DNA from: a virus
Lineage: Duplodnaviria > Heunggongvirae > Uroviricota > Caudoviricetes
Direction: 5' to 3' (one strand)
Virus record (IMG/VR): IMGVR_UViG_2737471835_000007
DNA length: 47,347 nt
Of the stretch, positions 5,264 to 35,645 are shown piece after piece (the stretch's first letter is position 1; every line of letters begins with the position of its first letter). The position numbers and the translations under genes are program-made. The notes under the pieces are model-generated. The model did no database searches. It had not been told where the DNA came from and worked only from the letters and a program-made list of their open reading frames with translations.

Positions 5264-5886
5264 TTTTGAATCACCGTTGTTGCATAAGAATAAATAAAAG
5301 GGAGTTTTACATATTTCTGGTCAATGGCATCTTTCAGAAAATAGCCTATACCATCACCATATTCTGGTATATGAATAGAAAAAACACTGTCCGACACAGT
5401 CACGCTCACATCAAAAGTGTGCTGCAACGGCGGGTCTATTCCGTTTTTCCCATGAATGAACCGTGCCACACGGCGCTTTAACCAGTCAATGCAGAAATGC
5501 GAACCGTCAGCCTTATAAAAATTCCAAGTTAATATTCGCTTGAAATAATCATCCGGAACATACGATGCCTGCCCCGGAACATAATTCCGCATTGCCGCAT
5601 AAGGGATTGTATTGTATTCAATGGTATCGTATGCGCCGCGTGCAATAGCCTCCTCGGAAACCTGTAGTAAAGGCCTTTCAACGCCATAAATCCCGAGAGC
5701 AATCCAGTCCAGCAATTGCCCGGTTATTGATTCCGATGTCCAGCATGGCAATGCCAGATTGTTGAGTGAATCGAGGTATTCCTGAGCAATTTCATTGTAT
5801 GCATCAAAGAACGCAACAACATTCGGATCATCTCTGTACTGCACAAACGGATAAGCAGGGAGAATTTTTTCAGTCAGATATTGCAT
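5260..5886 (-). CDS. tail/baseplate protein (gpI-like position)
   Basis: ORF in the tail operon between the J-like gene and the fibre gene; start placed at MQYLTEKILP. Confidence 0.5.
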   Translation of the reverse strand: MQYLTEKILPAYPFVQYRDDPNVVAFFDAYNEIAQEYLDSLNNLALPCWTSESITGQLLDWIALGIYGVERPLLQVSEEAIARGAYDTIEYNTIPYAAMRNYVPGQASYVPDDYFKRILTWNFYKADGSHFCIDWLKRRVARFIHGKNGIDPPLQHTFDVSVTVSDSVFSIHIPEYGDGIGYFLKDAIDQKYVKLPFIYSYATTVIQK

Positions 5887-7096
5887 ACTTGTTAACTTGA
5901 ACCTGTGATGCCACTGTCGAAAAATAGGAATAGGTATCGCCATAAACCAGGCTTGTGTCTTTTGCCGGAAGAACAATATGACCATTAATGCCAATGCTCA
6001 CACTGATTGTTGAGATCAACGTCGCATCAACCAGCAACCTGACAGAACTGGTAAAAATATCCTGGATACGCAGAAGATTTATCGGGTGTCCGACTTCAAT
6101 TGAATTGATGTAATCAGCAACGTTTTGCTGCACAGCCATAGCAATACCCGCCGGATCAACATAATCATCAGACACCGTGTTCCAGGTGATTAGCACCATG
6201 ACGTTTTGTGATGACGGGATAACGAACGGCACCTGATAAACGTCCGGCGAAACGGTTATTGAAACCGTGCGTTTTTCCACTGCCGCACCGGATGGATTGC
6301 TTACATCGTTGGTCAGTTTCGAAATATCCGGTACAGATTTGTAAATCGCATAAGCCACATCATACGGATCACCGCCACCAACAACCGCAACCCATTTCCC
6401 CAGCGACGACTGCCGGAAAGAAATCAGGTTTTCTCGCACACCGCTTACTGATTTGAGCATCGCTTTATAGCAATCCGGTGTTCCCTGCACACCAAACATA
6501 CCGGACTCCATGACTTCGGCGCGGTAAGATGCCCACGTCTGCGCCTCCTGACCTGGCATCCCTGCGGTAAGGTTCGTGCATTTTACAGGCTGGTCTTTTG
6601 GTACTGAGGTAATAACCTGCGTCACAGTCCCTTCCGGTACAGCCCATGAGCCTGACGTTGTGGCCACACAGTAGACTGGTTCAGTCTGCCCACTTTCCGG
6701 CACCACCGTATCGCGGGAAACTGCATACTGGTAGTTGCCATCACCGACAACAAATCCTTTAGGGATACCAAACCCCGGCAACGCCTCAAATACCACGTAT
6801 ACCGCCGTATTTGTACTTAATCCCTTCTGTGCTCCATAAATGTTTCCGAGTTGCATCAGTAACGGAATATTTGCGCCGTATGGGCTTACGGAGTTAATAA
6901 GGTCCACCCGCGCCTGGTCTATTAATGCCAGCGCCCCGACTGCCGTGCTGGCAAGGTCAGTAATAAGCCCCGCCGGAAGGTTGGCTGTATATCCAGGTAC
7001 TTTTTCAGCAACTCTGATGATAAGATTTGCAAGCAAATCATTGGGTGGCGTAGGCTGCGCCCCCGCACTGGTCATAGTAATTGGTATTTCTGACAT
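5870..7096 (-). CDS. baseplate J-like protein
   Basis: 408 aa, size and position typical of baseplate J/gp47-like proteins; GGAG ribosome-binding site before the ATG at 7096. Confidence 0.6.
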   Translation of the reverse strand: MSEIPITMTSAGAQPTPPNDLLANLIIRVAEKVPGYTANLPAGLITDLASTAVGALALIDQARVDLINSVSPYGANIPLLMQLGNIYGAQKGLSTNTAVYVVFEALPGFGIPKGFVVGDGNYQYAVSRDTVVPESGQTEPVYCVATTSGSWAVPEGTVTQVITSVPKDQPVKCTNLTAGMPGQEAQTWASYRAEVMESGMFGVQGTPDCYKAMLKSVSGVRENLISFRQSSLGKWVAVVGGGDPYDVAYAIYKSVPDISKLTNDVSNPSGAAVEKRTVSITVSPDVYQVPFVIPSSQNVMVLITWNTVSDDYVDPAGIAMAVQQNVADYINSIEVGHPINLLRIQDIFTSSVRLLVDATLISTISVSIGINGHIVLPAKDTSLVYGDTYSYFSTVASQVQVNKYAISD

Positions 7097-7108
7097 ATTT
7101 ACTCCATT

Positions 7109-7134
7109 AAAAAACCCGCTTTCGCGGGTTTTTT
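7109..7134. terminator. bidirectional intrinsic terminator
   Basis: AAAAACCCGC-TTTC-GCGGGTTTTTT: perfect 6-bp GC stem flanked by A-run and T-run, 3 nt downstream of the moron stop and just upstream of the J-like start. Confidence 0.7.
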
Positions 7135-7136
7135 AC

Positions 7137-8297
7137 TTATTCAACCTCTTCTAAACTGCTCACTCTGGACCCTCGGCGGAAATTATCATCATTTTTAACA
7201 TACTCGTATGAATCCAGAATCAAACCAGATATGCGAAGTATATCTTCCGGATTAGTTATATGTATCCTTTTACCATCCGTATCAAGTCGAGCTCGTCTTA
7301 TTTCATTCAACTGAACTTCACTAAGCGAAATAGGTAAAGTTATAAATGAAGATTTTTTATCATAAAATCTTAACAGCCATCTATTAGTTTTACCATTCAA
7401 TAGCACACCAAAATATGACTCAGTATCTTTATATTCTATATTATCTTCTGTTTGTATGATTTGTTTTACCCTTTCAAATAGCTCCAATTCTTTGGCTGTG
7501 GTTATTATGTTGGGGTTTTCTTCATCAACAATGGCGTTATTAACTTGTGTATCCGTTGCATCATTTTCTTTAGTTTGCTCTACCGGTTGTGTAGATAGCC
7601 CGGAAACCACCATTGCGCTAACAGCGCGCTCAACGGCCTGTTTAACTAATGGAGTCACGAACTCAAGAAATCTCTGATTAAGTTGTCTCTCAATATTTGA
7701 ACGACTAGCAACATATCGAACAAACTCCAGATCAACTTCACGAAGACTAGAACTGATTGTTTTAGTAAATGAATTCAAATAAACACTTTCTTCAGCCAGT
7801 GTCCGTAAAGCCTCTGGTTTGAATTTATCATAACGAAAACGAAATAATTGTGTAATATCGGAGTGAGTTAGAGAATCCATTCTTATTTTTAAAAACGGCG
7901 TTGAATCCATTATGTTTTTTTGTTTCAAATCCGTAAAAAAACGCCATTCAACACCATTTGTAATGGCTGATATAGTAACTTCCGGTGTTGAATTAAAATA
8001 TCTTGATAGCTGTGGGCAGTGATTATCAATTTGTTCTGAAAACGATTTCGCCTCAATGAACATCACAGGAACATCATGACAAAATAAAGCGTAATCAACC
8101 CGTTCATTAGCCTTAACCCCGGGGAAGTCAGCACTATACTCAGCTTTGACTTTTCTTGGATCATACGGAGTAAAACCAAGAATATCTAGTAATGGCATAA
8201 TGAGTGCTTGTTTTGTCGTTTCTTCAGTTGTACAAAACACCCCCATTTTTGCAACATGCTCTGTGTGTATTTTTAACTTATTTGCAAAATTTTCCAT
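7137..8297 (-). CDS. PD-(D/E)xK nuclease-domain protein (type I restriction enzyme HsdR N-terminal-like), moron in tail module
   Basis: 386 aa from MENFANK (GGAGGAG ribosome-binding site). N-terminal ...ERVDYALFCHDVPVMFIEAKS...NGVEWRFFTD matches the D...(D/E)xK core of HsdR-N-like nucleases; C-terminal ~200 aa unassigned. Locally AT-rich, with its own upstream region and terminator. Confidence 0.7.
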   Translation of the reverse strand: MENFANKLKIHTEHVAKMGVFCTTEETTKQALIMPLLDILGFTPYDPRKVKAEYSADFPGVKANERVDYALFCHDVPVMFIEAKSFSEQIDNHCPQLSRYFNSTPEVTISAITNGVEWRFFTDLKQKNIMDSTPFLKIRMDSLTHSDITQLFRFRYDKFKPEALRTLAEESVYLNSFTKTISSSLREVDLEFVRYVASRSNIERQLNQRFLEFVTPLVKQAVERAVSAMVVSGLSTQPVEQTKENDATDTQVNNAIVDEENPNIITTAKELELFERVKQIIQTEDNIEYKDTESYFGVLLNGKTNRWLLRFYDKKSSFITLPISLSEVQLNEIRRARLDTDGKRIHITNPEDILRISGLILDSYEYVKNDDNFRRGSRVSSLEEVE

Positions 8298-8312
8298 GCT
8301 TGTCTCCTCCAT

Positions 8313-8446
8313 GGTAACAATATGTATTTTGCAAATCCGAAATAATATATGTCAATATGCTCCAGCTTAGAAAATTACTCGCCCCCCTAAAATATCTCTC
8401 TACAGCACTCCAAACCAAGGTAAAAGTTTTATCATAAAACTGTGAT
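8313..8446 (-). promoter_or_regulatory. AT-rich upstream region of the moron gene, putative promoter
   Basis: 134-bp AT-rich spacer; consensus TTGACA hexamer on the minus strand at 8355-8350; no convincing -10 identified. Confidence 0.35.
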
Positions 8447-8794
8447 TCATACCGGCACCTGCGTCCGGTAACTGGTCCCATTAAAAAACACAACATCGAT
8501 GTTATAGGTGGGGTTATCTGCTCCATCTACCTTTGAAATTGCCAGTGATGCAAAATACCCAGCAAACTGTTGCTGAACCATGTTCACATAGTAGTCTGGG
8601 TAAATCTGCTGCACGATGCACTGCTGTGCAGGAATACCGTAATTCGCGTAAAACGGCGACTCCCCCAATCCCAGCTTTAACGTCTGAATGAGCGTCGTCA
8701 GCCAGCCGTAGGAGAAATCACCGTTGGCGTCAGATTCTACTGCAACCCATTTTTTGTTGCCGTTCGCGTCGGTGACGCGGCCCCATGTTCTCAT
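8447..8794 (-). CDS. putative baseplate protein (gpW/gp25-like position)
   Basis: 115-aa ORF between the spike-like and J-like genes; assignment by size and position only. Confidence 0.45.
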   Translation of the reverse strand: MRTWGRVTDANGNKKWVAVESDANGDFSYGWLTTLIQTLKLGLGESPFYANYGIPAQQCIVQQIYPDYYVNMVQQQFAGYFASLAISKVDGADNPTYNIDVVFFNGTSYRTQVPV

Positions 8795-8994
8795 CGTGCC
8801 CCCATCACTTTAACTAACTCTGTCAGTACTGGTGAAAAGGCAAATGCTAAAGCTACGAGTGCAGCGGTGTAATACATGCGTCGTAAGGTATTGCTTTTTG
8901 CCACTAATTTTAAGGCTTTCACAATCCAGTCTCCTCCGCTAAAATTAATCACGGAAGACCTCCAAACATACGTAATCATCCCTTGCGTATTCAA
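8791..8994 (-). CDS. small hypothetical protein with C-terminal hydrophobic segment
   Basis: 67-aa ORF whose stop overlaps the next start (ATGA coupling); segment YYTAALVALAFAFSPVL; true start uncertain. Confidence 0.3.
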   Translation of the reverse strand: MNTQGMITYVWRSSVINFSGGDWIVKALKLVAKSNTLRRMYYTAALVALAFAFSPVLTELVKVMGAR

Positions 8995-32986: not shown

Positions 32987-33142
32987 TTACTCCTCAGGTT
33001 CGTAAGCTGTGAAGACAGCGACCTCCGTCTGCCCGGTTCGGATTCGTACCTCACAGAGGTCTTTCCTCGTTACCAGTGCCGTCACTATGACGGTTAAACA
33101 GATGACGATCAGGGCGATTAACATCGCCTTTTGCTGCTTCAT
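32987..33142 (-). CDS. hokD: Hok/Gef family type I toxin (HokD/RelF-like)
   Basis: 51 aa MKQQKAMLIALIVICLTVIVTALVTRKDLCEVRIRTGQTEVAVFTAYEPEE; short upstream mok-like ORF ending in CTATGA overlap. Confidence 0.85.
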   Translation of the reverse strand: MKQQKAMLIALIVICLTVIVTALVTRKDLCEVRIRTGQTEVAVFTAYEPEE

Positions 33143-33190
33143 AGCCTGCTTCTCCTTGACCTTTCGGTCCGTAAGAGGCTAATCTCTATG

Positions 33191-33260
33191 TGTCGCATAG
33201 ATATGGCCTCAGATTAATGTTAAACGTCTTGCAGGACGCGTAATGTTAACTGGGGCTTTT
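33191..33260 (+). ncRNA. putative Sok-like antisense RNA
   Basis: Plus-strand TTGACC (33156-33161) and TAATCT (33180-33185), 18-nt spacer, directing transcription antisense to the hok leader; 3' end not defined. Confidence 0.3.
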
Positions 33261-33664
33261 CTCTATCTACCTTTGGTGATCATGCCCGAGGCAGATAGCC
33301 TCAAGCACCCACAGCAATTCTAACTATCCAATACATCACTGCCAACACTTTAAACTCTTACCCTTTAAAACAAGAACAAAATTCAACCAATCAGCATTGG
33401 GCGTATACTCATATCCTAGAGAAAACAACTCTTTCTGTACTATTTATATCCATATGATTTATAAGCATTTGCCACTTGCCATAGCCGCACAATGACAGTT
33501 TGCCATTTGATGTCAATAGATAAAAATGATCGTTTTCAATGAGTTACATACTTGCAAGGCGTTGCACATCAGGCCCGATTACGTCAGTATCAAAAGATTA
33601 CAGATGGTGCATTACTGCCACCTCGCCTTAATGTTCCAGAACTCTCCAACTTGAGGAATTTTCA

Positions 33665-34438
33665 ATGACATCCTTTCAATTATCTTTGATTTCTCGTGAA
33701 ATTGACGGCGAAATAATACATTTACGTGCCAAAGATGGTTACATAAACGCCACATCAATGTGTAGAACTGCGGGCAAACTGCTCTCTGATTACACTAGAC
33801 TCAAAACTACTCAAGAGTTTTTTGACGAATTATCACGCGATATGGGAATTCCCATATCGGAGTTAATTCAATCATTTAAAGGTGGAAGACCTGAAAACCA
33901 AGGGACATGGGTGCATCCTGACATCGCTATTAATCTAGCGCAGTGGCTATCGCCCAAATTTGCAGTCCAGGTTTCAAGATGGGTTCGTGAATGGATGTCA
34001 GGGGAAAGAACTACAGCAGAAATGCCTGTACATTTAAAACGGTACATGGTTAATCGTAGTAGAATTCCTCACACGCACTTTTCTATTCTTAATGAACTGA
34101 CATTCAACTTGGTTGCACCTCTTGAACAAGCAGGGTACACACTCCCAGAAAAAATGGTTCCTGACATTTCACAAGGAAGAGTATTTTCACAATGGTTAAG
34201 AGATAATAGAAACGTAGAACCCAAAACATTCCCTACCTATGACCATGAATATCCCGATGGTCGCGTATACCCTGCAAGGCTGTACCCAAATGAATATTTA
34301 GCAGATTTCAAAGAACATTTTAACAATATTTGGTTGCCGCAATATGCCCCGAAATACTTCGCTGACCGGGACAAAAAGGCTCTCGCCTTGATTGAAAAAA
34401 TTATGCTACCTAACCTCGATGGCAATGAACAGTTCTAA
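33665..34438 (+). CDS. KilA-N domain protein
   Basis: N-terminal ...LRAKDGYINATSMCRTAGKLLSDYTRLKTTQEFFDEL...WVHPDIAINLAQWLSPKFAVQVSRWV is a KilA-N/APSES-type domain. Confidence 0.8.
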   Translation: MTSFQLSLISREIDGEIIHLRAKDGYINATSMCRTAGKLLSDYTRLKTTQEFFDELSRDMGIPISELIQSFKGGRPENQGTWVHPDIAINLAQWLSPKFAVQVSRWVREWMSGERTTAEMPVHLKRYMVNRSRIPHTHFSILNELTFNLVAPLEQAGYTLPEKMVPDISQGRVFSQWLRDNRNVEPKTFPTYDHEYPDGRVYPARLYPNEYLADFKEHFNNIWLPQYAPKYFADRDKKALALIEKIMLPNLDGNEQF

Positions 34439-34445
34439 ATGATTA

Positions 34446-34476
34446 GCCAGCCCCATAAGGGCTGGTTATTTAGTAT
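34446..34476 (+). terminator. putative terminator after KilA-N gene
   Basis: CCAGCCC-CATAA-GGGCTGG followed by TTATTT. Confidence 0.45.
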
Positions 34477-34478
34477 TA

Positions 34479-34562
34479 TCAACCCCAGCGGCAAATCGAA
34501 TACACCACCAGCGCCACCGCCATCGCAATTCCTACCGTTGTGAATGCTTCAGACCAGGTCAT
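34479..34562 (-). CDS. small hydrophobic peptide (27 aa), translationally coupled
   Basis: ATGA overlap with upstream stop; MTWSEAFTTVGIAMAVALVVYSICRWG. Confidence 0.25.
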   Translation of the reverse strand: MTWSEAFTTVGIAMAVALVVYSICRWG

Positions 34563-35062
34563 CGTAAAACATCCTCCACGCTTATAAGTCCGCTTCGCTC
34601 CAGGTAGTCCATCACTTTATCCGGCAATTTGCAGCCCGGTTTCGCTTTCTTAAGTTGACTAACCAATTGTTTAACCAGCATTGTCAATTCGCGAACTTGT
34701 TTCCCGGGCTCCCCTTTGCCCTGAAGCAGGGCAGCGCGGCAAGCGTTCCATCCCTCAGCATATGTTTCAGTTACACCATCGAGATGGCATGTAAGCAAAT
34801 CCATTTCTTCCGGCACTACGGGCGCTGGAAAAACGGCATAGGATGGCGTCCATTTTGGCGCTTTATCTCCAGCCGAACGCTGATACCAGTCATCCGGTTT
34901 GTATTCATAAAAATCACCAACTGGCTCTGCTTCCAGAGATGCCAGAGCAATTTTGAATAATTCGCCCTCTACCCATGCCATCCCTGAATTGGGGTGGCAT
35001 TTCTCAATCGCTATTTTTAATTTAGCTTCTTCGATTAATTGCTTTTTGGTTAATTCAGTCAT
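34559..35062 (-). CDS. hypothetical protein
   Basis: 167-aa ORF. Confidence 0.55.
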   Translation of the reverse strand: MTELTKKQLIEEAKLKIAIEKCHPNSGMAWVEGELFKIALASLEAEPVGDFYEYKPDDWYQRSAGDKAPKWTPSYAVFPAPVVPEEMDLLTCHLDGVTETYAEGWNACRAALLQGKGEPGKQVRELTMLVKQLVSQLKKAKPGCKLPDKVMDYLERSGLISVEDVLR

Positions 35063-35222
35063 TTTTCATTACCGCCCTTTCGGGCCGCCTCCTAATATTT
35101 TGAGGGTGCAGCCCCCCCTCCGGTTAAGGATTAAATTTTATTTACAGTGCTAAATTTAATTATTCAGATTTGGATTATGATTTCTCTTTCAGTTCACGCA
35201 GTTCCCTGATTGTTAATTTGGC

Positions 35223-35645
35223 TCACAACAGCACATCCTGAAAATTACCCTGATAGAACGCCAGTACACGCTGCATGACTTCGCTCTTCCGGCACTCGCG
35301 ACAGATTATATTCAGACGCCTGTCATAGCGGCGTATTTCTCCGTCTGGTAATGACCAGATAAGGTCCGGATCAACTACAGCAGGTTTCTTCACCTTTGCC
35401 CTCGATAGTTTTTTGCGGGCGTTTTGCCAGTCCTTACGAGCCTGTTCAGAGGGAAATAGCCCGTAGCCGGAGTTATATACATCGCCACTGGCAACCAGCT
35501 CTCTGGCGAGAACGCTCATTAAATATCTTGTCGCACCTGTCTTAGCTTCAAGTTGTCGTAACGTCTCGCGCCCATTCTGGCGCACGAGTTCAACAACCTG
35601 CCCCTTAATTTTTTCCCGCTCTTCTTGTGTAAATACTTTTGCCAT
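35223..35645 (-). CDS. hypothetical protein
   Basis: 140 aa from MAKVFTQ with GGAGG ribosome-binding site. Confidence 0.55.
   Translation of the reverse strand: MAKVFTQEEREKIKGQVVELVRQNGRETLRQLEAKTGATRYLMSVLARELVASGDVYNSGYGLFPSEQARKDWQNARKKLSRAKVKKPAVVDPDLIWSLPDGEIRRYDRRLNIICRECRKSEVMQRVLAFYQGNFQDVLL

Follow-up and report, generated by a model that had tools for sequence, protein, structure and literature searches.

Functional screens have recovered single nucleases that restrict modified phage DNA without accompanying methyltransferases, among them PD-T4-3, HEC-06, MdgA and MdgB, and a nuclease was carried by 35 of the 39 inserts that were active against T4 but not against T4-GT7 (PMC12366544). 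In C. jejuni, a 347-aa HsdR-N protein was present in a phage-resistant strain and absent from a sensitive strain (PMC8713573).

The window analysed here, a 47,347-nt stretch of viral DNA (IMG/VR record IMGVR_UViG_2737471835_000007), derives from an E. coli Rac-type prophage, and between two of its baseplate genes lies a 1.35-kb cassette of 36% GC that consists of a promoter-like site, one gene and a strong hairpin terminator. Our preferred reading, which we hold tentatively and at somewhat less than even confidence, is that the cassette represents a moron whose one gene encodes an anti-phage nuclease, expressed in the lysogen and acting as a single protein independently of any methyltransferase. 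We infer the anti-phage activity from genomic context, and on that footing regard the gene as a strong candidate. The features referred to below are as follows.

5870-7096, minus strand: baseplate J/gp47 family gene (J), the downstream flank; Pfam Baseplate_J at 1.4e-8, phrog_6
7097-8446, minus strand: cargo cassette (predicted moron), from the J start codon to the W-like stop codon, where flanking homology ends
7109-7134, either strand: symmetric (bidirectional) intrinsic terminator, AAAAAACCCGCGAAAGCGGGTTTTTT; -17.4 kcal/mol, z = -5.8
7137-8297, minus strand: coding sequence of 386 aa plus stop codon for a stand-alone HsdR_N-type nuclease; RefSeq WP_000426902.1
7173-7517, minus strand: alpha/beta C-terminal domain of YdhG/YjbR/MotA-CTD-like fold, residues 261-375; presumed specificity or sensor module
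7518-7592, minus strand: disordered acidic linker, residues 236-260; pLDDT below 50 at residues 231-252, negative charge kept
7593-7892, minus strand: helical connector, residues 136-235; highly conserved within Enterobacterales
7893-8297, minus strand: PD-(D/E)xK nuclease domain, residues 1-135, with E25, D68, E82-x-K84 and Q96xxxY100
8304-8310, minus strand: Shine-Dalgarno GGAGGAG, 6 nt 5' of the ATG at 8297; direct reading, and homologues begin at the equivalent Met
8326-8355, minus strand: sigma-70-like promoter candidate, TTGACA at 8355-8350, 18-nt spacer, CAAAAT at 8331-8326; 10 of 12 consensus positions
8447-8794, minus strand: W-like baseplate-module gene of 115 aa, the upstream flank; phrog_7986, of unknown function, named by synteny

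Read from its first ATG, the open reading frame spans 7137-8312 on the minus strand and encodes 391 aa. We place the start at the ATG at 8297 because the Shine-Dalgarno sequence, the alignment of all homologues and the RefSeq protein agree on it. The promoter candidate scores highest among 10 sites in the region (chance expectation 4.9 +/- 2.3), and it has a poor -10 hexamer in an AT-rich stretch; because promoter-like matches in the region run at about twice the chance level, it is only suggestive. The terminator begins 2 nt past the nuclease stop codon and is followed by the ribosome-binding site of J. None of 200 shuffles of its sequence (7134-7109) folded equally well, and the hairpin was absent from the list returned by a simple terminator scan. 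An earlier note on this DNA had described a single gene with an AT-rich upstream region containing TTGACA and a terminator at 7109-7134, and each of these elements was recovered. The gene's own promoter-like site and terminator suggest moron behaviour.

The protein matched Pfam HSDR_N (5.6e-14) and HSDR_N_2 (2.4e-9), each with a score exceeding the gathering threshold. Residues E25, D68, E82, K84, Q96 and Y100 were invariant in an alignment of 103 sequences from several phyla; in a more diverse alignment of 49 sequences the catalytic residues showed a single exception, at E82, and E82 and Q96 were at least 90% conserved. The HsdR-N-type nuclease fold that had first been read from D68, E82-A-K84 and the motif NGVEWRFF (residues 114-121), all of which sit where they were reported, is thus borne out both by the Pfam matches and by the conservation of catalytic residues across phyla. 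Over the coding sequence dN ranged from 0.05 to 0.44 with synonymous sites saturated, and the gene is, judged from its coding sequence, under purifying selection; values of 0.05-0.15 against a saturated dS speak for strong selection on an intact effector. The HsdR-type PD-(D/E)xK domain is an intact, predicted DNA-cutting effector. The protein contains no hydrophobic segment (maximum KD19 1.08) and is soluble.

Some 250 aa of the protein had been described as matching nothing recognisable. At the level of sequence this holds: in PDB sequence searches neither the protein alone nor a profile of 103 sequences retrieved anything beyond chance matches (haemagglutinin HA2 and a ribosomal protein, E ~0.2), and across 49 diverse members no Pfam model for YdhG, YjbR or MotA gave a match, with the threshold relaxed to E <= 1. 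It no longer holds for structure, since the AlphaFold modelling and structure comparison that had been proposed assign the C-terminal domain a YdhG/YjbR/MotA-CTD-like fold. The AlphaFold2 model used was built from 103 diverse sequences and reached a pLDDT of 84.9; a model from 40 close homologues reached 67.6, with the middle region below 50. A structure search of BFVD gave one full-length match only, which was uninformative. Three observations together make the C-terminal domain look like a recognition module: some of its fold relatives bind DNA (YjbR proteins and the C-terminal domain of T4 MotA), it evolves faster than the nuclease domain, and five E. coli homologues can be aligned over their first 704 nt only. 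Because the domain is not basic (net charge -1, family median -1) and its closest structural match is a YdhG-like protein without an established DNA-binding role, DNA as the thing recognised is suggested only weakly. The linker that precedes it is 12-38% identical between relatives, its sequence being free to vary, and carries a net charge of -6 here (median -6, range -11 to -1, across 103 sequences).

These properties also bear on a less likely alternative, in which the protein is a sensor-activated nuclease of the abortive-infection type. In the lysogen it would be held inactive by autoinhibition, perhaps through the acidic linker lying in the DNA-binding cleft, until the C-terminal domain bound a phage protein or small molecule and set off indiscriminate DNA degradation that kills or arrests the infected cell. 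Points in favour are a neutral to acidic domain that in fold most resembles a YdhG/frataxin-like protein that does not bind DNA, and a linker that keeps its negative charge without keeping its sequence. In one representative protein, moreover, the C-terminal domain is fused to an XRE HTH instead of the nuclease, as expected of an independent sensor or oligomerisation module, although deletion may have created this fusion as an artefact, given that an HTH repressor gene normally stands immediately upstream. Against the alternative, no trigger is known, the relatives of the nuclease domain (HsdR and the Type IIG/IIL enzymes) are direct restriction enzymes, and the published single nucleases of similar style acted directly and in a modification-dependent manner. 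A more doubtful extension would make the protein the first member of a pan-bacterial class of one-protein immune sensor-effectors, found mainly in prophage immunity operons and lying outside restriction Types I-IV. Here the YdhG/YjbR-like domain would detect a cue from the phage (a protein or some unusual feature of nucleic acid) and release a DNA-mimicking acidic linker from the nuclease, and gated autoinhibition, in place of sequence or methylation, would set self apart from non-self.

The cassette is sharply bounded. GC content is 0.356-0.382 across 7001-8500 and 0.47-0.54 in the flanks, and in alignments with four prophages that hold other cargo, homology stops exactly at 8447, in the W stop codon, and at 7096, in the J start codon. 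Three distant phages (Klebsiella phage Chronis, Yersinia vB_YenM_29.18 and Shewanella QDWS) have an empty slot, their W-like gene overlapping J by 4 bp, whereas close E. coli relatives hold an ant gene with small ORFs, an ant fragment with a 182-aa ORF, or an LprI-family gene, the last of which, in strain ETEC1703, ends in an analogous terminator and ribosome-binding site. No empty site was seen among the E. coli prophages compared. This comparison of W-J junctions, which the earlier note had recommended, upholds its view of a moron inserted between baseplate genes, with flanks that adjoin in distant phages, cargo that varies in close ones and a deviating GC content. As for the names of the flanks, the J-like assignment stands on its Pfam and PHROG matches, and the W-like one comes from synteny only, that gene having no Pfam match. 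Judging from these alignments, the W-J junction of Rac-SA53-like prophages is a cargo hotspot. Among the strains aligned with the window, EC11 diverges from it at 33167-35211 and at the right end, and annotations from EC11 were used only up to 33166; A17 matches the segment that is replaced in EC11 (33000-35400, 99.9%) as well as the W-J region (6700-8800). An 82-aa ORF at 8278-8526 was considered as a hidden partner gene and rejected; it lacks support, and its span overlaps both the W-like gene and the region of the promoter.

The arrangement, in which a lone nuclease gene sits exactly between two conserved genes that otherwise abut, would also fit a free-standing homing endonuclease. During co-infection, such a selfish element would cut the unoccupied W-J junction of a related phage and insert a copy of itself. 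Spread of that kind would agree with the near-identity of the 25 E. coli copies (at least 99.2%). We consider homing highly improbable, since the slot elsewhere holds unrelated non-nuclease cargos, the family occupies many unrelated slots, mostly behind repressors and not inside conserved essential modules, and solitary chromosomal copies in Gilliamella keep their position across assemblies. To our knowledge, HsdR_N domains are not a homing-endonuclease family.

The wider family numbers at least 2,733 protein clusters, with members in at least 569 species genomes and at least 552 viral contigs, ranges from Proteobacteria to Firmicutes, Bacteroidota and Myxococcota, and occupies at least four different slots. 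Across IMG/VR viral loci the upstream gene was co-oriented in 67 of 69, and it was an S24 repressor in 21, RacR-like in 10 and ImmA in 6, so that a repressor or ImmA gene preceded the nuclease in at least 37. The upstream neighbour in species genomes was HTH_3 in 15 of 72, S24 in 9 of 72 and M78 in 8 of 72, and the downstream neighbour was a recombinase in 8 of 73. In Citrobacter the nuclease gene lies 21 bp behind a cI-type repressor; in E. coli PCN061, STEC384 and Klebsiella phage KpF5 it lies directly behind racR or an HTH repressor; and in Roseburia and S. pneumoniae phages it lies between repressor/ImmA genes and the integrase. The Gilliamella copy is solitary and chromosomal, outside prophages. 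We regard the gene as a strong candidate for one-protein defence because its relatives, from many bacterial phyla, mostly sit just behind prophage repressors, a placement that points to expression in the lysogen. The suggestion that a stand-alone nuclease here might have an anti-phage function thus gains strong support from context, most relatives being directly behind and co-oriented with repressor or ImmA genes, although this context favours abortive infection and direct restriction equally. None of the computational findings that the earlier note had named as telling against it emerged: homologues are not conserved, syntenic baseplate components, since the slot is empty or otherwise filled in related phages and the family resides elsewhere in other slots, and the nuclease fold has profile support.

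The orientation of the gene in this prophage pulls the other way. Because it is co-oriented with late tail genes, and thus readable by late transcripts, its expression probably also extends to the late lytic phase, which counts against a defensive role and would suit a nuclease of the lytic cycle that degrades host or competitor DNA, processes DNA for recombination or packaging, or counters host defences without protecting the lysogen. Its PHROG, 4225 ('endonuclease'), is classed under 'DNA, RNA and nucleotide metabolism', in line with this. Such a role is nevertheless improbable: most homologues lie immediately behind and co-oriented with a repressor, in an operon that lysogens express, the gene can be dispensed with (in the same slot, sister prophages hold unrelated cargo and distant phages none), solitary chromosomal copies occur outside prophages, and the cassette has its own terminator.

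Existing annotation of the family is derived from domains. The NCBI name is 'type I restriction endonuclease', and at JGI automatic naming by COG yields 'predicted type IV restriction endonuclease'. With these names and PHROG 4225 already in place, the earlier description of the system as undescribed does not hold for its existence; it does hold for its function and its C-terminal module. The NCBI name would agree with half of a split restriction-modification system or an accessory to a Type I system, cutting unmodified sites while an unlinked phage or host methyltransferase protects self. Orphan methyltransferases do occur in the carrier prophages KpF5, PCN061, Citrobacter L012 and STEC384, and one lies ~0.8 kb from the nuclease gene in an Stx2 phage, although orphan methyltransferases are common in lambdoid prophages anyway. 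This explanation is very improbable given that neither the window protein nor 49 diverse members matched the SF2 translocase models ResIII and Helicase_C in Pfam, and that no linkage to hsdM or hsdS was found: the nuclease gene here adjoins baseplate genes, and across 76 species-level loci neither a methyltransferase nor a specificity-subunit family recurs among the neighbours. Neither a recurrent partner nor a recurrent methyltransferase family appeared among 280 first and second neighbours at those loci, and the Gilliamella and Roseburia loci had no methyltransferase within 6 kb.

Returning to the preferred reading of direct, methyltransferase-independent restriction, we propose that in the lysogen the gene would be transcribed from its own promoter to its own terminator, with late transcripts reaching J only through antitermination, and that in most relatives it would be co-transcribed with the prophage repressor instead. 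In the protein, the helical connector and flexible acidic linker tether the HsdR-type nuclease to the YdhG/YjbR-like domain, which would serve as a specificity module and license cleavage of incoming foreign DNA only. By analogy with Type IV restriction, such DNA would most likely be marked by a modification or structure that the host lacks. Superinfecting phages would be restricted directly, and the DNA of host and prophage left uncut. The rarity of the gene in E. coli, where 33 of 5,426 complete genomes carry it, counts against this reading. Literature searches found no experiments on the family.

Should the gene protect lysogens, a very widespread one-gene system would be added to the defence catalogue, in a family that current annotation mislabels as a Type I restriction subunit and that PADLOC-DB v2 misses. 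Among the cargoes of prophage immunity operons it would be one of the most frequent, at the position that lambda rexAB occupies behind the repressor, and it would offer a simple model of a methyltransferase-free nuclease that spares its own host.

Set against known systems, the family protein shares with Type I HsdR (EcoR124I HsdR, PDB 2w00; fragment 3h1t) an N-terminal HSDR_N-type PD-(D/E)xK nuclease, but lacks the ResIII/helicase motor, an HsdM/HsdS partner and a methyltransferase neighbour, and at 386 aa against ~1,000 aa it has a C-terminal module that HsdR does not. The Type IIG/IIL enzymes (BpuSI, 3s1s; DrdV, 7lo5; the MmeI family) are near relatives in their N-terminal nuclease and helical connector, after which they continue into a methyltransferase and target-recognition domain, whereas the family protein goes on to its acidic linker and the small YdhG-like domain and has no methyltransferase part. 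In PADLOC-DB v2.0.0, the Roseburia member matched a Type IIG model only (E 0.0011); the window protein matched nothing at E <= 1, and neither the Gilliamella nor the metagenomic members gave a match. DefenseFinder's FS_HsdR_like, reportedly a PICI-encoded single gene from the work of Fillol-Salom et al. in 2022, may overlap with the family. Three specific identities were rejected: GiPD474 has an ATPase domain, SNIPE is membrane-bound, and MdgA and MdgB both carry DUF4268.

The YdhG/DUF1801, YjbR/DUF419 and T4 MotA C-terminal 'double-wing' proteins have folds like that of the C-terminal domain at an identity of only 10-14%, and, unlike the family protein, none is known to be fused to a nuclease. 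In genomic niche the family resembles the exclusion and defence genes of prophage immunity regions, such as lambda rexAB behind cI, BstA, and the sie- and Abi-type genes that Firmicutes phages carry between repressor and integrase; the proteins are unrelated, and the gene in the window sits in a tail-module hotspot instead. Homology to the described Type IV families (Mrr, McrA, McrBC, GmrSD, MspJI, PvuRts1I and SauUSI) was not found with PADLOC or Pfam, nor was homology to the single-chain defence nucleases, the PADLOC models for PD-T4-3 and HEC-06 among those giving no match. By Pfam, DUF4268, SRA and GIY-YIG domains were absent from the window protein and 49 diverse members, and Mrr_cat matched only one of the 49 (E 0.0022). 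In architecture, however, the family is like the Type IV enzymes of the PvuRts1I/AbaSI type and like PD-T4-3, HEC-06, MdgA and MdgB, each being one polypeptide that joins a nuclease to a recognition domain with no methyltransferase. PvuRts1I has the same domain order, an N-terminal nuclease followed by a C-terminal reader. With no recurrent methyltransferase neighbour and with copies that stand alone, the family shares one trait of the Type IV enzymes, a nuclease without a cognate methyltransferase.

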